Below the pieces are notes generated by a model. It made no database searches and had not been told where the DNA came from. It saw only the letters and a list, made by a program, of their open reading frames with translations. A program made the translations under genes and the position numbers. From a virus (taxonomy: Duplodnaviria > Heunggongvirae > Uroviricota > Caudoviricetes): a DNA stretch of 64,000 nt. Positions 726 to 30,515 of this stretch are shown here, in pieces (the first letter of the stretch is position 1; each line of letters starts with the position of its first letter). The stretch covers positions 1 to 64,000 of IMG/VR virus record IMGVR_UViG_3300012347_000377; one strand, written 5' to 3'.

Positions 726-838
726 TAGTCAGGTGGCGGAATTGGTTAGACGCTGCTCGTGGAGAGTTGATTGGTTCTGTTCGATTCAGACGTTGGAAAT
801 GGTGTTCCACAAATACAGGTTCGAATCCTGTCCTGACT
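726..838 (+). tRNA. tRNA-like gene with roughly 40-nt insertion between D- and T-arms (intron-containing or degenerate tRNA; paralogue of 25501-25627)
   Basis: Acceptor AGTCAGG/CCTGACT, D-arm GCGGAATTGGTTAGACGC, T-arm ACAGG-TTCGAAT-CCTGT; total 113 nt, too long for canonical tRNA. Confidence 0.4.
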
Positions 839-860
839 ACAAACTTTAAACAAAAAGAGA

Positions 861-2953: not shown

Positions 2954-3607
2954 ATGAAAATTACATTAAACAAAGGACAAAAGTTATGGTTCACAAGTGA
3001 TACTCACTATAACCATGCAAACATTTGTTCCGCCACAACAAAGTGGACAGACCCCGTAACTTGTAGAGAGTTTACATCGTTAGCACAAATGAACTCACAT
3101 CTTATAGCTAACATCAATTCAGTTGTGGAACAAGATGACATTTTATTTCATTTGGGTGATTGGAGTTTCGGTGGGTTTGAACAAATACAAATATTCAGAG
3201 ATAGTATTTTTTGTAAAAACGTTCACATTATTACTGGTAATCACGACCATCACATTGAAAACAATAAGGAAGATTGTCAATCACTTTTCAGTTCGGTAAA
3301 CAAATACCTAAACTTAAATGTAAAATGGAATGTAGGAACTCATTTCGCAGGTGAACAACGATTTGCTCTAATGCACTTTCCAATTGCAAGTTGGGATAAT
3401 ATGGCTAAGGGTGCAATTCACTTACATGGTCACGTTCACTTTTCACCTAAATTAAGAATCGGTAAAGGTAAGATGATGGATGTGGGCGTAGATGGTAATC
3501 GTTTATTCCCAATTGAAATGAGCGAGGTATTAAAGTTAATGAAACCACAGCCAATCAAAAGTTTGTTTGAGTTTGATCATCACGAGATTGTTGAAAATTA
3601 TAGATAA
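2954..3607 (+). CDS. calcineurin-like metallophosphoesterase
   Basis: Motifs SDTHYNH, HLGDW, GNHDHH typical of the metallophosphoesterase fold. Confidence 0.65.
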   Translation: MKITLNKGQKLWFTSDTHYNHANICSATTKWTDPVTCREFTSLAQMNSHLIANINSVVEQDDILFHLGDWSFGGFEQIQIFRDSIFCKNVHIITGNHDHHIENNKEDCQSLFSSVNKYLNLNVKWNVGTHFAGEQRFALMHFPIASWDNMAKGAIHLHGHVHFSPKLRIGKGKMMDVGVDGNRLFPIEMSEVLKLMKPQPIKSLFEFDHHEIVENYR

Positions 3608-7842: not shown

Positions 7843-8700
7843 ATGAATATGACACGTTTATTATTAAATCTTACTGATGTTGAAAAATCAGACATCGCAT
7901 TTAAAATTTCTTATTTTCCAGATGGCCAGCAATCCATCTCAATTGAACCAGTCGGTTCTACTCCTACAATTCGAATTCAATCACGATTAAATTCATTCAG
8001 AGATGTTGAATTAATTATTTGTGCTAACCAATCTCTTAAAGAAATGGGTGCTAAAGATATTGAATTATATGTTCCATATTTTTTAGGTTCTAGAAGTGAT
8101 AGAAAATTTGGTGAAGGTCAAACTAACTATCTTAAAAATGTTATTTCTCCAATTATTAATTCACAAGGATTTTCAAAAGTTATTACATTAGACCCACATA
8201 GTGATGTATTGGAGGCATGTTTAAACAACTACGAGAAAGAAGATAATTTCAAATTAGTAGAATATGCAATCGAACAATTGGGTAAGAAAGAAAACTTAGT
8301 TTTAGTATCACCCGATGCAGGAGCATTTAAGAAAATATTTGAAGTTGGTAAAGAATTCCAAATTGAGAACATTATTACTGCAAGTAAAGTTCGTGATATA
8401 AAAACAGGTGATATTGTGAGTACGAGTATTCCAATGTTAAGTAGAAACAATCGTTTTAAGTATGTAATCATCGATGATATTTGTGATGGTGGCAGAACGT
8501 TTATCGAACTTGCAAAGGCTATTAAAGAACAACGTGAAGGTGTTGAAATTTATTTGGTTGTAACTCATGGAATATTCTCAGCAGGATTTACTGAATTAAC
8601 TAAATACTTTAATGGTATTTTCTGCACTAATAGTTATAGAAATGTTTTAGATGATGAGTATGGAGTTAAAACCAAAACAAAACAAATAAATGTATATTAA
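7843..8700 (+). CDS. prs: ribose-phosphate pyrophosphokinase family protein (Prs-like; possibly ADP-ribose pyrophosphokinase of an NAD+ reconstitution pathway)
   Basis: VPYFLGSRSDRK, VSPDAGAF, IIDDICDGGRTF (PRPP-binding), VTHGIFS align to Prs motifs. Confidence 0.8.
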   Translation: MNMTRLLLNLTDVEKSDIAFKISYFPDGQQSISIEPVGSTPTIRIQSRLNSFRDVELIICANQSLKEMGAKDIELYVPYFLGSRSDRKFGEGQTNYLKNVISPIINSQGFSKVITLDPHSDVLEACLNNYEKEDNFKLVEYAIEQLGKKENLVLVSPDAGAFKKIFEVGKEFQIENIITASKVRDIKTGDIVSTSIPMLSRNNRFKYVIIDDICDGGRTFIELAKAIKEQREGVEIYLVVTHGIFSAGFTELTKYFNGIFCTNSYRNVLDDEYGVKTKTKQINVY

Positions 8701-8701
8701 T

Positions 8702-9127
8702 ATGGAAAACGTAGATGAATATTTAGAAACTGGTAAATCATTACGAAGATTAATCGATGAATATACCAAGTATGGTTCATTATGTATTGGATATGATTTT
8801 GATGGAACGGTCTATGATTATCACCAAACCGGTGCAAAGTATGATCAAGTAATTGATTTACTACAAGACCTTAAGGTAATGAATTGTAAATTGATTTGTT
8901 GGACAGCACAAAATGATTTAGAATTTGTTGAGAAATTTTTAACGGAAAATAGCATACCATTTGATGGGATAAATACCGATGGTATTAACTTAGGTTGGGA
9001 AAGTAGAAAACCATTCTTCTCAGCACTTTTAGATGATAGAGCTGGATTGAAACAAGTCTATGAAGACCTTCGTATGTTAGTGACTTTATTTAAAATACCT
9101 ACCGATAAATTTGGAAATCCAAAATAA
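8702..9127 (+). CDS. small HAD-like protein (DFDGT motif)
   Basis: ORF 8690-9127 trimmed to ATG after Prs stop; YDFDGTVYDYH. Confidence 0.35.
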   Translation: MENVDEYLETGKSLRRLIDEYTKYGSLCIGYDFDGTVYDYHQTGAKYDQVIDLLQDLKVMNCKLICWTAQNDLEFVEKFLTENSIPFDGINTDGINLGWESRKPFFSALLDDRAGLKQVYEDLRMLVTLFKIPTDKFGNPK

Positions 9128-9141
9128 AAGTTGTATATTAG
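9110..9141 (+). promoter_or_regulatory. phage promoter overlapping end of upstream gene
   Basis: atttggaaatccaaaataaaagttgtatattagc. Confidence 0.45.
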
Positions 9142-9171
9142 CTTTATAATTAACAGATAAACAATAAAACT

Positions 9172-10650
9172 ATGAATCCATTATTATTAACCGATGGTTA
9201 TAAGACAGGTCATCACCAACAATACCCAGAGGGAACAACGTTGGTTTATTCAAATTTCACACCCCGCAGTAACAAATATGCACCAACGGGTTGTGATAAT
9301 GTAGTATCGTTTGGTCAACAAATGATTATGAAACAAATTCACGAGGCATTTCAAAATGAATTCTTCTCTAAACCAAAAGAAGAAGTTTGTGGTGAAATGA
9401 AACGTGAGTTAAGTTTGTATTTGGGAACTGATTATGATGTTTCTCATTTTGAAGCATTACATGATTTGGGTTATTTACCAATCATTGTAAAAGGTATTGA
9501 AGAAGGAACATTAGTTCCAATGAGAGTACCAGTATTAACAATCTATAATACATTACCGGAATTTTATTGGGTTACAAATTATTTAGAAACAATCATTTCT
9601 AACTTATTATGGAAACCAATGACATCTGCTACTATTGCTCATACCTATCGTAAGGTATTAACTAAATGGCAAGAAAAAACCGATGCTGAAAAAGGTTGGT
9701 TTGTTGATTGGCAAGGACATGACTTCTCAATGAGAGGAATGGATTCAGTTGAAGCTACAATCGCTAGTGGATTAGGACACTTAACATCATTTAGTGGAAC
9801 TGATAGTTTACCTGCTATTTACGGAGCAAGAAAGTTCTATGGTGAAGAAGGATTCGTTGGAGGTTCGGTAAACGCAACCGAACATAGTGTAATGTGTGCT
9901 GGTTCTAAAGATGATGAAGTTGGAACATTCCGCAGATTGTTAGAAACATATCCAAAAGGTATTTTATCAGTTGTAAGTGATACTTGGGATTTATGGAAAG
10001 TATGCACCGAACATATCGTTACTCTTAAAGAAGAAATCTTAGCAAGAGATGGTAAGTTGGTAATCAGACCTGATAGTGGTGACCCCGTAGATATTCTTTG
10101 TGGATTAGCAAACACCGACAGAGCGGCTAAAGGAGATTCTCATGATAATGCAAACGCAGCTTATAAAGGAGTTATTGAATTACTTTGGGACGTGTTTGGT
10201 GGAACAATCAACGAACAAGGTTACAAAGTATTAGATTCTCACATTGGAGCAATTTATGGTGATAGTATCACAATTGATAGAGCTGATGAGATTTGTAGAA
10301 GATTGGAAGCAAAAGGTTTCGCATCTACAAACGTTGTATTAGGTATTGGTTCATTCACATATCAGTATAACACGAGAGATACATTTGGATTCGCTATGAA
10401 AGCAACCTATGTTGAAGTAAATGGTGAAGGTAGAGAAATCTTCAAAGACCCTATTACTGATGATGGTGTTAAGAAATCAGCCAAAGGTTTATTAAGAGTT
10501 GCGGGAGATGAAACCCATATGTTATTAGAAGACCAATGTACGTGGGAACATGAAACAACTGGTAAATTACAAACCATTTATAAGAATGGTGAGTTTTATA
10601 ATGAAACTACTTTAACTAAAATCAAAGAGAAAATTAAAACAAATAAATAA
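9172..10650 (+). CDS. nadV: nicotinamide phosphoribosyltransferase family protein (NAMPT/NadV-like)
   Basis: N-terminus MNPLLLTDGYKTGHHQQYPEGT... matches NAMPT family start (..ATDSYKVTHYKQYPP..); 492 aa. Confidence 0.8.
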   Translation: MNPLLLTDGYKTGHHQQYPEGTTLVYSNFTPRSNKYAPTGCDNVVSFGQQMIMKQIHEAFQNEFFSKPKEEVCGEMKRELSLYLGTDYDVSHFEALHDLGYLPIIVKGIEEGTLVPMRVPVLTIYNTLPEFYWVTNYLETIISNLLWKPMTSATIAHTYRKVLTKWQEKTDAEKGWFVDWQGHDFSMRGMDSVEATIASGLGHLTSFSGTDSLPAIYGARKFYGEEGFVGGSVNATEHSVMCAGSKDDEVGTFRRLLETYPKGILSVVSDTWDLWKVCTEHIVTLKEEILARDGKLVIRPDSGDPVDILCGLANTDRAAKGDSHDNANAAYKGVIELLWDVFGGTINEQGYKVLDSHIGAIYGDSITIDRADEICRRLEAKGFASTNVVLGIGSFTYQYNTRDTFGFAMKATYVEVNGEGREIFKDPITDDGVKKSAKGLLRVAGDETHMLLEDQCTWEHETTGKLQTIYKNGEFYNETTLTKIKEKIKTNK

Positions 10651-13532: not shown

Positions 13533-14672
13533 ATGGAAAACTTAAATTCAGTTTGCTACGTAGCAACGATTAATGAAATCAAACCAATCGAAGGTGCTGA
13601 CAACATCGAACTTGTAATAGCAGGTGGATGGAATGCAATCACAAAGAAAGGTGAATTTAAAGTAGGTGATACAACCATCATCGCAACTACTGATGCAGTT
13701 ATACCAGAATCACTTTCCGAAGAAATGGGAGTTACAAACTATCTTCGTAAAGGTAATAGAGTTAGGACTGTGAAGTTAAGAGGTGTATATTCAGAATGTT
13801 TGATTATACCAAAGCAGTATCTAATGGGTAATGTGACAATGGGTGATTATGATTTGGGTGAAGGTAGTGATTGTATGGAGTTCTTAGGGATTACTAAATT
13901 CGAACCACCAGTTAAGATGGTTCAATTAGCAAGTGGTAAAAAGATTCGTTATCAAGATAATCCAAACTTTCATGTCTATTATAAGTTTCCTAACTTAAAG
14001 AATGTACCTGATATGTTTACTAACAATGATTTAGTAGAAATCACTCGTAAGATACATGGAACTAATGCTCGATATGGTATTGTTAAAAAGAACAAATTAT
14101 CATTATTTGATAAGCTTAAGAAATTCTTTGGATTTGCCGATAAGTGGATTGATTACGAATTCGTAGTTGGTTCTCATAACGTAGAGAAAGGTTCAGACTC
14201 CAATGGGTTCTATGATACTAATGTTTGGTATGAAATTGAAAAGAAATACAACATCAAACAAAAATTATGGGATTACGTTAAAAATGAAAACGTTTATATT
14301 GGTGATGGTATTACCTTATATGGTGAGATTTACGGAGCGGGAATCCAAAAGGGATATGAGTATGGGTTAAAAGATATTGAGTTCGTAGGATTCGATGTAA
14401 AGGAGTGTGGTGAGTATTTAAGTACCTACAATGCTTGGAGGGTAATTAAAAATGAATTAGAATTACCTTATGTTGAAATTTTACACTTCGGTGATTGGTC
14501 ACAAGAAATACAAGATTCTTTTGTATTTAATAACTTTATCGAAGGAACAAAAGTTCCACATGAAGGAATTGTAATCAAATACCACACAGGTGAAAGACCA
14601 AAGATTGCTAAGGTAATCAACCCTGATTATTTAATCTTTGCAGAAAAACACAATGTGGGGGATTCCCATTAA
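13533..14672 (+). CDS. ATP-dependent RNA ligase, Rnl2-like, with extra N-terminal domain
   Basis: Motif I KIHGTN, motif IV EGIVIK, motif V IAKVIN in canonical order. Confidence 0.65.
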   Translation: MENLNSVCYVATINEIKPIEGADNIELVIAGGWNAITKKGEFKVGDTTIIATTDAVIPESLSEEMGVTNYLRKGNRVRTVKLRGVYSECLIIPKQYLMGNVTMGDYDLGEGSDCMEFLGITKFEPPVKMVQLASGKKIRYQDNPNFHVYYKFPNLKNVPDMFTNNDLVEITRKIHGTNARYGIVKKNKLSLFDKLKKFFGFADKWIDYEFVVGSHNVEKGSDSNGFYDTNVWYEIEKKYNIKQKLWDYVKNENVYIGDGITLYGEIYGAGIQKGYEYGLKDIEFVGFDVKECGEYLSTYNAWRVIKNELELPYVEILHFGDWSQEIQDSFVFNNFIEGTKVPHEGIVIKYHTGERPKIAKVINPDYLIFAEKHNVGDSH

Positions 14673-19029: not shown

Positions 19030-19404
19030 GGGGATGCCCGGTATTGACAGATATGAAGTGTTGATATAATTGCAAGCAGGATTAGATGGAAATCCTTAAT
19101 CACCTATCGAACAATAAACGCAGAAGAAAAATCTTCATTCACCTTTGCAGATGCTATGGCATTTGTAGGTGCTGATTTAGCTGTAGCAGCATAATCATCC
19201 TCGCACACATCGTGAGCTAAAAAAGAATGTGAACTCAGGTGGAAAAGTGATTGAACCCGAAATCGAATCACTCATTGTTTATCGGTTGCCGATGGTGAAG
19301 AACCAACCGAATATTTTGTTAGTTAAGAAAAACTAACTAAGCTTGTGAATGAGGTTTATTAAACCATATTTTGGACGAGGGTTCGACTCCCTCCATCTCC
19401 ACCA
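19030..19404 (+). ncRNA. ssrA: tmRNA (SsrA)-like RNA, phage-encoded
   Basis: 5' GGGGATG pairs with 3' CATCTCC-ACCA (G3:U70); 3' end GGACGAGGGTTCGACTCCCTC...CCACCA is tmRNA-like; internal frame aataaacGCAGAAGAA...GCTGTAGCAGCATAA ends in ...ADLAVAA stop. Confidence 0.6.
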
Positions 19405-20424: not shown

Positions 20425-21550
20425 AACGTTCTTTAAATTATTGAAAACATTGCACATAGTATTCTCGTAATACATAGTGCATATCCGCCGCATATGGTGG
20501 TTAAATAAACTTGGAAACAAGGATAAAGTGAATACATTGGTTAATGTGTTTGCGGTTTCAAACCGAAAGGAATGGAACTCGAGTATGCAAGTGGAATATC
20601 ATTAGACCTGATTAGTGAGGGTAACTCCGTAGTGAAATGGTTTGATGACTGGGCTATAGTAGAAGTTCAGTTGAAGTGGGAACACTAATAAGAATAATCC
20701 ATAGAGTTAATGCAAGAAGTGAGAACTTAATCTCTTCTCATCATTGCGTGATTCAATATTAAAGGTGACTTAAAACCGAAAGGTATGATAAAGTACGAGT
20801 GGTGTCGTTATTATCCTTACCTACCTCTCACCAAAGAGTGGGTATTGAAGTAATCTTAAAATATGGCGTTAGAGATAACGCATCGAGTAGTATAGTATTC
20901 TGTTCTTCAAAATGGAACGGAGCTAGTGGTAATCCACTACTTGAATTCTTCTACAAACCAAAACTCAATTTGCTATTTGAATGCAAACTCAAAAACAAAT
21001 AAGAGAAAGAGGTTACCAGTTACAATCGAAAGGTGTGTACTTAGTAGGGAGATGTTCCCTGCCACAAACACTCTCAAGGTGAATGTGATTCTTTCAAAAA
21101 ACTTCTAGCATTGCGAGATGTTAATCGGGTCGGCAGATTCGAAGAGGCGGAGTAAAAAGAGAGTAGGTTGTGACTTAAAGATTGGTAAATCTATAATTAC
21201 CCACATTGAATTGGTACTTCTCAAAAGGAAGTGGAAATTAAGGCAACCCATAACCCTTATAAAGCTGGTTCACAATATGGAGTATTCTCATCCTTATACA
21301 AGATGTAATAGTGTAATGGTAGCACGTTCCAATGGTGACTTTGGAAAGCAAGGTTCGATTCCTTAAACATCTCTTCGTAGTGGTTTACGGCAGATAGGTT
21401 AGGTGTATCTCTCTAACAACTGAAAGTCCACTTAAATAAAAATGACAAATAGTATGAAGATATGGTTTTCAGTAGGGGATTTTCGCCTTAAACAATCTCA
21501 ACCAATACGAATTAGTGTTGATGGTAAACAATGGATGTAGCTAGTCCTTT
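20425..21550 (+). ncRNA. candidate large structured non-coding RNA (about 1.1 kb, ORF-free)
   Basis: Bounded by consensus promoter and terminator; no ORF >82 aa in any frame; visibly G+C-richer than coding DNA; recurring ccgaaagg/tcgaaagg GNRA-like hairpins (20562, 20778, 21037). Confidence 0.35.
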
Positions 21551-23901: not shown

Positions 23902-23960
23902 CGATAAAGGATACTGGTCGTATCGCCTGACGAGGAGAGTGTGGTTCGATTCCACAAAAC

Positions 23961-24030
23961 TGCGTGACTTAGTGGAAAAGAACTTTCTCTCATAAGGAAG
24001 GTCAATTGAGTTCGAACCTCAAACACGCAA
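23961..24030 (+). tRNA. tRNA-like, anticodon CAT (Met/Ile2-type loop), weak D-arm
   Basis: TGCGTGA/ACACGCA (1 mismatch), TTTCT-CTCATAA-GGAAG, TTGAG-TTCGAAC-CTCAA. Confidence 0.3.
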
Positions 24031-24199: not shown

Positions 24200-24274
24200 G
24201 CTCGTATGGCGGAATTGGAATACGCAACGGCCTTAGAACCCGTACAATTGAAAGTTCGAATCTTTCTATGAGCA
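24200..24274 (+). tRNA. tRNA with UAG anticodon (Leu-decoding) but short variable arm
   Basis: GCTCGTA/TATGAGC, loop CTTAGAA, GAAAG-TTCGAAT-CTTTC; class-I architecture is unusual for Leu. Confidence 0.45.
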
Positions 24275-24297
24275 CAAACACTTAAACAACGATAATT

Positions 24298-25500: not shown

Positions 25501-25627
25501 AGTCTTGTGGCGAAATGGTAAACGCAAATGTCACTCGGAGAAGAAGGAACTAAGCCAACATCTCCTTGCAAGTGATAGGGTATTCTAAAGAGTAAATCCC
25601 GTACAGGTTCGAATCCTGTCATGACTA
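25501..25627 (+). tRNA. tRNA-like gene with roughly 55-nt insertion (paralogue of 726-838)
   Basis: AGTCTTG/CATGACT acceptor, D-arm GGCGAAATGGTAAACGC, ACAGG-TTCGAAT-CCTGT; internal hairpins CACTCGGAGA...TCTCCTTGCAAGTG and AGGG...CCC. Confidence 0.4.
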
Positions 25628-25819
25628 CAATGTATCAAATGTGCAGTGAAAATAAATGTAGGCATACATATATGAGGTGGGTTCGACTCCCGTATAATAA
25701 TTCCAACTTAGGGGGGAAGCCAAGTAACTGAAAACACATTATAGCCGATTTGGGTTGTGCACCTCGTCCGAGAAACCCTAATAGTTCCTAATAGGTCGGT
25801 ATGGAACTGATACATAATT

Positions 25820-25892: not shown

Positions 25893-26268
25893 CCGATTGA
25901 TGTTTCGTTTGATGGTATGTTTTTAAGTTGCCAAAGTGCCGAAAGGATTACTTGATAAGTAAAAAGGATAAACCATCGTAATTGGCTCTATAATTGTTGA
26001 GGTCGCACCAAAGACAATGAGTGGGTGAATGATGATTAAATGTAGGTGACACTCCTTAATACTAGGATTGGAGAGAAGAGTTGGTGCATTTAGTAAGTAG
26101 TTCATAAGATGGGTTCGATTCCCATTAGAGTCTCAATGATTACTGAAATTGAATGATACGAGCCCCGAAAGTTCGAAAAGAGTCAGGCAGTAATCATAGA
26201 GTGGATTCATCAGTTGATGAAAACCAATCGGGGGTTGTCCCACTAGAATGGAAACATCCCCTGCATTT

Positions 26269-27094: not shown

Positions 27095-27535
27095 ATGAAA
27101 GTAAGTGATGAAAAGATAATTGAAATATGTAATAACTCAATATCAATGGCTAGAGCAGCAGTTGATTTAGGAATACATTTTAATACTCTAAAAAGTAGAG
27201 CAATTAAATTGGGGTGTTATAAAATAAACCCATCTGGTAAGGGGATAAAAAAACCTAAAAGAGATGGATTTGATAAGATAGCTCTTTCTAAAATACTGAA
27301 TGGTGATGAACCACAATATCAAACTAATAAATTACGAATTAGATTGATTAAAGAAGGTATTAAAGAAGAAAAATGTGAAGTATGTGGTATAACCGAATGG
27401 AATGGTAAATCAGTTTCATTTGAATTGGATCATATAGATGGTAATAGGACAAATCACAAATTAATTAATTTAAGAATAATTTGTCCAAATTGTCATTCAC
27501 AAACTGAAACATATAGAGCAAGAAATATTAAGTAA
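27095..27535 (+). CDS. HNH homing endonuclease
   Basis: ELDHIDGNRTNH...ICPNCH (HNH with zinc ligands). Confidence 0.7.
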   Translation: MKVSDEKIIEICNNSISMARAAVDLGIHFNTLKSRAIKLGCYKINPSGKGIKKPKRDGFDKIALSKILNGDEPQYQTNKLRIRLIKEGIKEEKCEVCGITEWNGKSVSFELDHIDGNRTNHKLINLRIICPNCHSQTETYRARNIK

Positions 27536-30271: not shown

Positions 30272-30515
30272 CAACCTTATTCTCATGTTGGGCTCAGGTG
30301 AGTGAAAAGCGTACGAGGTTACTGAGTCCTTTATTGTAGTGTGACGAAATTGGCAGACGTGCCCTCCTGTCTCGGGGGTGTGGAATAAAGAAATAGATTG
30401 ACAATATGGGGTAGACCACCAGCATGCATGCGAACGATGTTGTCAATTGAATCTCCATTTGAGTGGTTCGAATCCCTTCACTACAGCATTATTAATTTAA
30501 TATCCAGTATCGATA

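Follow-up and report, generated by a model that had tools for sequence, protein, structure and literature searches.

The 64,000-nucleotide stretch of viral DNA analyzed here (positions 1 to 64,000 of the IMG/VR virus record IMGVR_UViG_3300012347_000377, Caudoviricetes; hereafter called the window) stems from a large uncultured phage and encodes two tRNA-like elements, EL1 (727–839/840) and EL2 (25501–25627/25628), which are members of a large and apparently undescribed family of phage RNAs. From a bacterial tRNA-Leu, these RNAs retain the acceptor stem (7 bp), U8, a Leu-type D arm that includes A14, A15, G18G19, and A20a, then U48 and the T arm, and finally A73 and C74. A structured insert of approximately 20–130 nt, which is specific to the lineage, stands in for the anticodon and variable arms. 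The interpretation that fits the sequences best, and which we consider rather probable, is that they represent tRNA-Leu-framed scaffold RNAs that would be processed like tRNAs, carry diverse functional inserts, and are possibly leucylated. The original prediction for this DNA had placed the two elements at 726–838 and 25501–25627 and described shared acceptor, D and T arms around some 60–76 nt of sequence in place of an anticodon arm and a short variable loop. Both elements are present, and the lengths measured are 61 and 77 nt.

EL1 (727–840, plus strand) is a complete gene for such an anticodon-less tRNA-like RNA. Following a U(-1) at position 726, the acceptor 5′ strand AGTCAGG (727–733) forms seven out of seven pairs with its partner at 832–838. 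It is succeeded by U8, G9, and a tRNA-Leu-type D arm, GCGG-AATTGGTTAG-ACGC (734–753), with one additional U in the D loop. The 61-nt insert (754–814, with U48 at 814) comprises hairpin A (756–766), a conserved single strand, a T-arm-like hairpin with the sequence TCTG-TTCGATT-CAGA (776–790), and hairpin C, TGGAA-ATGGTG-TTCCA (794–809). The T-arm-like hairpin adjoins a strand that contains GG. The T arm ACAGG-TTCGAAT-CCTGT (815–831) and the acceptor 3′ strand CCTGACT with A73 at 839 and C74 at 840 (832–840) complete the gene, which does not encode CCA and is followed by an A-rich trailer. EL2 (25501–25628, plus strand) is situated in the tRNA island, with tRNA-His and tRNA-Thr as neighbors. Its acceptor 5′ strand AGTCTTG, U8, G9, and the D arm GCGA-AATGGTAA-ACGC (25501–25525) are followed by the 77-nt insert (25526–25602), for which the minimum-free-energy fold predicts an extended arm with a 19-nt loop (25529–25535/25571–25577 and 25537–25541/25561–25565) and a second hairpin at the position of a long variable arm (25578–25600). 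The T arm is identical to that of EL1 and, together with the acceptor 3′ strand CATGACT, A73, and C74 (at 25628), occupies 25603–25628. Pair 6:67 of the EL2 acceptor is a U-A in place of a G-C and is hence compensated.

Both elements contain a 7-bp acceptor stem, a D arm, and a T arm with a TTCRANY loop, and both score above the gathering score of the Rfam tRNA model RF00005 (37.3 and 38.2 bits for EL1 and EL2, respectively, compared to 29 bits). The Rfam alignment jumps over the anticodon arm and leaves 56 nt of EL1 and 52 + 18 nt of EL2 unaligned. The 26-nt 3′ half common to both occurs twice in the window at 0.00 expected occurrences in shuffles, and the 5′ half likewise occurs twice at 0.14 expected. 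The inserts of the two elements are unrelated to each other, so that the paralogy originally proposed for the pair holds for the frame but not for the inserts. ARAGORN, when run on the window, called neither of the two elements.

For the analysis of the family, IMG/VR was searched for exact matches to the shared 3′ half, and elements were then collected by fuzzy matching. The 3′ half was found in at least 119 contigs, with at least five exact copies in one locus. Upstream of the matches, the frame AGTCAGG-TG-GCGGAAT(T)GGTAGACGC ... (C/T)(A/T)T-ACAGGTTCGAATCCTGT-CCTGACT-A-C became apparent, which encloses approximately 20–130 nt that vary from copy to copy. In total, 170 distinct full-length elements (median, 106 nt) were collected, with up to 7–8 copies per contig, and 133 of the 170 inserts had no relative within the set (blastn-short). 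The family frame can be written as AGTCAGGTGGCGGAAT(T)GGTAGACGC ... U-ACAGGTTCGAATCCTGT-CCTGACT-A-C; EL1 matches it exactly and EL2 with two acceptor changes. A covariance model of the family (R1) assigned 88.7 bits to EL1 and 69.6 bits to EL2, genuine tRNAs reaching at most 41.8 bits. Applied to relatives of this phage, R1 detected several members in each, and approximately 150 kb of unrelated loci from viruses and metagenomes contained none.

No match to the frame was obtained in 50,697 GenBank phage records, even in a distant search mode, and among one genome per species from 185,579 species only 14 matches were found, all of them in contigs of metagenome-assembled genomes and none in isolate genomes. 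Several of these 14 contigs had been binned as Bacteroidota or Chitinophagaceae. The full-text literature, searched also with the frame sequence itself and with subscription journals outside the coverage, yielded no description of the family. The nearest report is a survey of viral structured RNAs mentioning unspecified tRNA-like candidates (PMC10690425). A few copies in the collection carry a normal anticodon arm on the family frame, among them those in L034 and L031 (loci are designated by L and a number): L034 (minus strand, 1217–1287 in reverse-complement coordinates) encodes a normal 71-nt tRNA-Lys(UUU) with an AGTCAGG/CCTGACT acceptor and an ACAGG/CCTGT T stem, directly adjoining four anticodon-less members, and L031 encodes a possible tRNA-Leu(CAA) on the family acceptor/T frame (49.8 bits). 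This suggests genuine phage tRNA genes as the origin of the family. Some members deviate further from a tRNA, as L035, L044, L059, and L088 contain an extra hairpin within the D loop, between A15/16 and G18G19, besides the insert at the anticodon position.

The positions of the frame that are unpaired or tertiary in a tRNA and that the search pattern did not impose are strongly kept among the members, with shares of 99% for U8 and 84% for U48, and of 88% for A14-A15 and 92% for G18G19, the latter two being partly biased since they were counted after a filter on the 5′ half that demanded similarity to AGTCAGGTGGCGGAAT. The helices vary while remaining paired. Alternative acceptor stems found in the same loci are AGCCAAG/CTTGGCT, ACCAAAG/CTTTGGT, GGTCGGT/ACCGACT, and AGTCATG/CATGACT, the last of which is a fully paired variant of the EL2-type acceptor (L159, L161), and alternative T stems are GCAAG/CTTGC, GAAGG/CCTTC, AGAGG/CCTCT, and GCGGG/CCCGC. 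A covariation test that was anchored on the D-loop and T-loop motifs alone, and in this way avoided circularity, proved too noisy.

More informative are the orthologues of EL1 in L142, L143, L138/L141, and L140/L144, beside which the DNA is no longer alignable between the contigs. The 48-nt core of the EL1 insert, TTGATTGG-TTCTGTTCGATTCAGACG-TTGGAAATGGTGTTCCAC-AAAT, is identical in five contigs except for one compensated pair, and the T stems of the orthologues differ (GCGGG/TTCGC, ACTCG/CGGGT, and ATAGG/CCTGT). In the acceptor of L138, pair 1:72 has changed from A-U to U-A and pair 7:66 to G-U, and the orthologue in L140 has gained a 34-nt hairpin. When the alignment of these orthologues was evaluated against a hand-written structure of 27 pairs, 99.3% were paired, compared to 31–44% for slid partners. 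Seven pairs had changed on both sides, a number reached in none of 500 shuffles, and both-sided changes were also seen in the insert hairpins A and C. To judge from these alignments, the EL1 insert is a selected, structured RNA.

Compensatory changes were likewise observed in other insert families, for instance GTTGAA/TTCAAC versus GAGCAA/TTGCTC and GTGTG/CACA versus GCGTG/CGCA. The folding energies of 143 inserts were below those of dinucleotide shuffles (mean z = -0.51, p = 1e-8), GNRA hairpins were enriched twofold (37 versus 17.9 expected), and T-arm-like hairpins were found five times at 0.7 expected. Because of the conserved core, the compensatory changes, the low folding energies, and the GNRA enrichment, the inserts are to be regarded, as far as such comparisons reach, as diverse structured RNAs that are kept by selection within lineages and not as junk.

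The flanks of the elements resemble those of the tRNA genes encoded in the same window. T(-1) is found in 85% and C74 in 98% of the members, followed by an A-rich trailer. Among the genuine tRNAs of the window obtained from the scan, C74 is present in 19 of 19 and followed by AA in 12 of 19; only a few of the tRNA genes encode CCA, and most are preceded by a T. Bacterial RNase P prefers a U(-1), and precursors of CCA-less phage tRNAs are matured by RNase Z/BN and the CCA-adding enzyme. Since the flanks match those of the genuine tRNAs of the phage, we infer that the elements are excised and CCA-tailed like tRNAs. Scans for promoters and terminators at the elements yielded nothing above shuffles.

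Several observations connect the frame to leucine. Positions 8–25 of the E. coli tRNA-Leu(CAG) gene leuV and the family consensus TGGCGGAATTGGTAGACGC have the same sequence, and when tRNAs are ranked by R1, the two tRNA-Leu genes of the window top all others. Leucyl-tRNA synthetase (LeuRS) from E. coli requires A73, A15-U48, G18G19, A20a, and the contacts between D and T loop, and tRNA-Leu variants without anticodon arm and long variable arm stay active with this enzyme (PMC9976931). The identity set, including U8:A14, is contained in EL1 and in the family consensus, albeit this set is that of E. coli and maybe not that of the host; in EL2, A20a is present and the D loop is shorter. The parts absent from the frame are precisely those that the E. 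coli enzyme can do without. As LeuRS reads only A73 and the elbow, the RNAs may be leucylated, and leucylation of family members appears plausible on these grounds. With regard to genuine leucine tRNAs of the phage, a tRNA-Leu(UAG) at 24200–24275 combines a Leu-type D arm with a variable region of only 5 nt (76 nt in total); bacterial tRNA-Leu is usually a class II tRNA with a long variable arm.

Taken together, the proposed scaffold RNAs would be co-transcribed with the adjoining genes and tRNAs and released by RNase P cleavage between U(-1) and +1 and by 3′ trimming after A73/C74, with the CCA-adding enzyme completing the end as in the phage's own CCA-less tRNAs. The frame would then adopt the L-shaped corner of a tRNA, which would provide stability and access to tRNA-handling enzymes, and the insert would project at the position of the anticodon stem and exert its specific function by binding an RNA, a protein, or a ligand. 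Leucylation by LeuRS would be possible without decoding. The wider notion that phages of uncultured, probably freshwater lineages operate a natural "tRNA scaffold" system, in which dozens to hundreds of aptamer-, decoy- or guide-like modules are presented in one leucine-identity frame and are processed, CCA-tailed, stabilized, and perhaps leucylated, is a tentative one and at present doubtful.

A number of points weigh against the scaffold interpretation. The invariance of the frame is inflated, as the loci were retrieved by the exact pattern of the 3′ half. Beyond GNRA hairpins no motif is shared across the inserts. The longest complementarity of the EL1 and EL2 inserts to the rest of the window is 12 nt, which is near chance. 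All-against-all clustering of open reading frames (ORFs) from 120 loci gave no conserved neighbor protein, with the best cluster covering 15 loci; the top clusters (DUF932, terminase, T5orf172) are unrelated, and the ORFs adjoining EL1, EL2, and the further element EL3 described below contain no informative domains. Leucylation, to judge from the D arms, cannot be general, since approximately 15% of the members, EL3 among them, lack a Leu-type D arm. Moreover, the length of the D loop varies (AATGG/AATTGG, with an extra U in EL1), and E. coli LeuRS responds sensitively to where G18G19 are placed. The EL2 acceptor contains a U-U mismatch at 5:68. No homologue of the EL2 insert was found in IMG/VR or the JGI metagenomes, where all matches were coincidences with coding sequences, and its structure is therefore a prediction only. 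Regarding the additional hairpins that had been proposed for the extra sequence, those named are indeed part of the minimum-free-energy folds, but EL1 and EL2 as a whole, when folded in isolation, do not significantly exceed shuffles in stability (z = -1.2 and -1.1, respectively). Finally, because mosaic contigs have their joints inside the frames, these also act, probably incidentally, as recombination joints.

In the main rival explanation, the function resides in the frame, and the RNAs would serve as decoys or sponges for a reader of the tRNA-Leu top half. This reader could be the host LeuRS, EF-Tu, an enzyme that modifies tRNAs, or an antiphage nuclease or toxin that attacks tRNAs at the acceptor or elbow; the insert would mainly keep the RNAs off the ribosome. 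The acceptor CCTGACT-A-C is kept in many copies in which the T stem has changed freely, a pattern that hints at a factor reading the acceptor stem in a sequence-specific manner or at frequent gene conversion, a statement limited by the retrieval bias. The complete LeuRS identity set is kept as well, and a phage engaged in a conflict over tRNAs would be expected to encode an RNA ligase and a full set of tRNAs, as this one does. A decoy, however, has no need for an elaborate insert, and the core of the EL1 insert is more conserved than the EL1 T stem. Inserts of up to 130 nt that show covariation, are enriched in GNRA hairpins, and differ among copies within one genome likewise speak against a decoy. 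We thus regard both parts of this explanation, the decoy frame and the insert that bars the ribosome, as unlikely, though more credible than the alternatives that follow. The original suggestion of tRNA-derived regulatory RNAs or decoys is borne out with respect to the non-decoding class, on the basis of the conserved family, the covariation, and the selected insert; within this class, the elements may act as regulators or decoys.

According to a second and less likely explanation, the tRNA-like folds serve as punctuation between genes, at which RNase P and RNase Z cut, and the RNA released has no function. Precedents are the tRNA punctuation of mitochondrial transcripts and the tRNA-like element of MALAT1 (mascRNA). 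In the window, the small gene 428–721 is bracketed by EL3 and EL1, the elements lack promoters and terminators of their own, and the RNase P-type flanks are conserved, all of which would agree with such a role. An acceptor/T minihelix would, however, suffice for this purpose, which leaves the Leu-type D arm, the Levitt partner U48, and the invariant insert cores without explanation, and many copies are arranged in tandem arrays without genes to separate (L140, L010).

Still more improbable is an explanation at the level of the DNA, in which the conserved halves are recombination or insertion sites through which gene and RNA cassettes are exchanged between phages, and the resemblance to a tRNA merely reflects ancestry. 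It could draw on the mosaic contigs with breakpoints inside the frames, on the order EL3–gene–EL1 in the window as opposed to EL1–EL3 in L138, and on L135, where the small gene lies between two identical collapsed 30-nt frames. Against it stand the compensatory changes, by which the helices of acceptor, T arm and insert stay paired and which thereby point to selection on the folded RNA, as well as the conservation of unpaired positions with a role in tRNA (U8, A14, A15, G18G19, U48, the T loop, and A73). Collapsed frames are rare (two contigs), and recombination at the sole conserved sequence of otherwise diverged phages is an expected by-product. In L135 (same contig as L167), the orthologue of gene 428–721 is flanked on both sides by the collapsed frame, AGTCAGGTGGCGGAAT|CCTGTCCTGACTA, as a direct repeat (2994–3022 and 3344–3372). 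The deletion extends from the D-loop GAAT to the T-loop GAAT and was seen only in L135 and L166.

The original prediction had also considered that EL1 and EL2 are genuine decoding tRNAs, either with a small unconventional intron or of class II with elaborate arms. For this reading one could refer to the Rfam tRNA score above the gathering score, to the variable-arm-like hairpin 25578–25600 of EL2, which lies at the long-variable-arm position, and to the few family frames with normal anticodon arms in L034 and L031. Neither copy, however, forms a cloverleaf with a 7-nt anticodon loop, which counts against both the intron and the class II version, and a 5-bp stem with a 7-nt loop containing U33 and R37 occurs in 6 of 169 members compared to 7.6 in shuffled inserts, i.e., at chance frequency. 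Conservation ends at position 25/26 and restarts at U48, and an anticodon stem-loop split into exon halves is hence absent. The anticodons that ARAGORN assigned to those members it called are arbitrary (Cys, Pro, Glu, Ile, Val, and four-base anticodons), with some labeled "???". All 20 amino acids are already served by the 25 tRNAs that the program found in the window, next to one unassignable tRNA-like gene and a transfer-messenger RNA (tmRNA). With respect to particular intron types, a group I intron, as in tRNA-Leu(UAA), is ruled out by the size of the inserts (61/77 nt, compared to at least ~200 nt with a P1–P9 core), by the lack of any match to an intron family at E up to 10, and by the missing exon halves. 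A bulge-helix-bulge intron at 37/38 is ruled out as neither element has an anticodon stem. A class II tRNA (Leu, Ser, Tyr) is ruled out as the "anticodon" branch of EL2 is a 7 + 5-bp arm with a 19-nt loop and EL1 has neither arm. RNAs of this type, having no anticodon, would be unable to decode, and the decoding reading is, to judge from the family alignment, already contradicted and retains only a very small probability.

A decay of tRNA-Leu pseudogenes with junk insertions, to which the unrelated inserts of the window, the mismatch in the EL2 acceptor, and the restriction of the EL2 insert to this phage might be ascribed, is the least credible of all explanations given the at least 119 contigs with an intact frame, the compensatory substitutions, and the insert cores under purifying selection, and judging by its orthologues it is already contradicted for EL1.

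The scaffold RNAs were also compared to known systems. Among the closest are the species 1 and species 2 RNAs of phage T4 (rnaC and rnaD, 139 and 119 nt), which lie in the phage tRNA cluster on the tRNA strand and are processed together with the tRNAs. Like the family members, they are small stable non-coding RNAs among phage tRNAs, and rnaC ends in a perfect T arm and an acceptor-like helix. In contrast to EL1 and EL2, they fall below the Rfam tRNA model (best match tRNA-Sec, 17.5 bits, E = 0.7). They show no sequence similarity to the family, have no Leu-type D arm, and are single genes and not multi-copy elements with exchangeable inserts, and rnaC is extended at its 5′ end beyond the tRNA-like fold. 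The resemblance is thus one of kind and genomic context only. tmRNA shares with the family that its ends form an aminoacylatable, anticodon-less tRNA-like domain and that a big functional domain takes the place of the anticodon arm. It differs by its alanine identity pair G3:U70, reduced D arm, pseudoknots, tag reading frame, and need for SmpB, whereas EL1 and EL2 possess U3-A70 and a complete Leu-type D arm, lack a conserved reading frame, and carry inserts that are not mutually homologous. The Rfam tmRNA model (RF00023) does not match either element, and the tmRNA of the window is a separate gene (19030–19404).

A minimalist E. coli tRNA-Leu without anticodon and variable arms remains a substrate of LeuRS, as summarized from Larkin et al. 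(2002) in PMC9976931. It shares the acceptor, D and T arms, A73, and the contacts between D and T loop with the family; these minimal tRNAs are artificial deletion constructs, in contrast to the natural structured inserts described here. The working principle proposed for the phage RNAs is the same as in engineered tRNA scaffolds, in which the anticodon arm is exchanged for an RNA of interest. The chimera, reportedly described by Ponchon and Dardel in 2007, is said to be cut by RNase P and 3′ enzymes and to be stable in vivo. Those scaffolds are a laboratory tool based on tRNA-Lys or tRNA-Met; to our knowledge a natural counterpart has not been reported, and the literature searched contained none. 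EL1 and EL2 hence belong to none of these systems, i.e., neither to the T4 species 1 and 2 RNAs, tmRNA, or minimal tRNA-Leu constructs, nor to engineered scaffolds.

Two further comparisons concern tRNA-like folds joined to another RNA. The tRNA-like folds of MALAT1 mascRNA and of the tRNA-miRNA transcripts of murine herpesvirus MHV68 recruit RNase P and RNase Z without decoding; in contrast to the family, these are eukaryotic or herpesviral, and the linked RNA lies beside and not within the fold. The Y RNAs of bacteria and mycobacteriophages (YrlA) are non-coding RNAs in which a tRNA-like module (T arm, D arm, and acceptor-like stem) is combined with a second functional module, and some are phage-encoded (PMC4201824). 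In YrlA, the tRNA-like module lies in the interior, the Ro-binding helix is made up of the termini, and the genes lie beside rsr, whereas the termini of EL1 and EL2 form the acceptor stem. Neither a Ro gene nor a Ro-binding helix was seen, the 120 loci share no neighbor protein, and there was no Rfam match to a Y RNA. In the EL1 and EL2 inserts, only tRNA was recovered as a known RNA family at E up to 10, and in 18 loci searched at the gathering threshold only tRNA, tmRNA, and GOLLD were found.

Phage tRNA islands are usually taken as codon-supply or anti-defense sets, and unusual tRNA-like calls within such islands are dismissed as pseudogenes or mis-annotated. The present comparisons indicate that such islands also hold many non-decoding, tRNA-framed RNAs with both frame and insert under selection, and that tRNA counts of huge phages are inflated or deflated by these elements. 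If the wider scaffold system exists, its RNAs would form a functional class new among viral non-coding RNAs, and tmRNA would no longer be the only natural tRNA mimic that can be aminoacylated without an anticodon. The scaffold interpretation, if true, would in addition provide a natural precedent for the engineered tRNA scaffold, a new route to functional RNA modules in viral dark matter, a handle on the old question of what RNAs of the T4 species 1 and 2 type are for, and a test case for the charging of natural anticodon-less substrates by LeuRS.

The expanded tRNA-like elements of the window are not confined to the pair originally predicted, as at least three more are present on the plus strand. 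EL3 (279–406) has a diverged frame, TGTCAAG ... ACTGG-TTCGAAT-CCAGT ATTGACA A C, and scores 31.3 bits with R1 (E = 5e-5). Its insert is conserved and pseudoknotted, with the helix ATTGAT/ATCAAT interleaved with AGTCTC/GAGACT, and it is also found in L074, where it resides on an AGTCAGG-type frame and the second helix reads AGTTTC/GAAACT. A search for known RNA families in EL3 gave nothing convincing. A resemblance to a hammerhead core (CUGAUGG, CGAAAC) was rejected as the order of its elements is wrong, and one to a sarcin-ricin loop (CGAGAGGAAC) was rejected as the GAGA is not conserved in L074. EL3 overlaps the beginning of ORF 278–721, which renders the first ~43 codons of this ORF spurious; the real start is probably the ATG at 428.

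Element 4 (25984–26134) is a 150-nt tRNA-like RNA of the form GGCTCTA ... ATGGG-TTCGATT-CCCAT TAGAGTC with U73, C74, and a 118-nt insert, and is kept with substitutions in L170, L172, L173, and L174. Its acceptor/T frame is also seen on a 74-nt tRNA with a CUA anticodon in L169/L171, a candidate amber suppressor. Element 5 (30335–30488), a 153-nt tRNA-like RNA, reads TGTAGTG TG ACGA-AATTGGCAG-ACGT ... AGTGG-TTCGAAT-CCCTT CACTACA with G73 and C74. Its D loop is of the Leu type (AATTGGCAG), its T stem is mismatched at one position, and its insert of ~96 nt contains a long hairpin, ATTGACAA ... TTGTCAAT; the score with R1 is 26.3 bits (E = 7e-4).

The window as a whole has a G+C content of ~31%, carries all its genes on the plus strand, and has no close relative among the GenBank phages. 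The tmRNA (102 bits) lies upstream of the tRNA island and encodes the tag peptide AEEKSSFTFADAMAFVGADLAVAA; a GOLLD RNA (260 bits) is located at 20883–21294. GOLLD, tmRNA, and a family element also occur together in L032 (4476–4887). Six nucleotides after GOLLD lies an odd 73-nt tRNA-like gene (21301–21373), to which ARAGORN assigned a four-base anticodon (gtga) and in which a loop contains AUGGUG, the loop hexamer of the EL1 hairpin 794–809. A 70-nt tRNA-like sequence at 23961–24030, called by neither tool, has an anticodon-like stem with an 8-nt loop (TCTCATAA), and two T-arm remnants at 23936–23964 and 25677–25700 stand alone, without a 5′ acceptor strand that would match. Protein-coding genes of the window include those for a PRPP-synthetase-like protein and NAMPT, i.e., for NAD salvage (7843–10650), an RNA ligase (PF09414, phrog_968; 13533–14672), thymidylate synthase, and UvdE, and an HNH endonuclease is encoded within the tRNA island (27095–27535).

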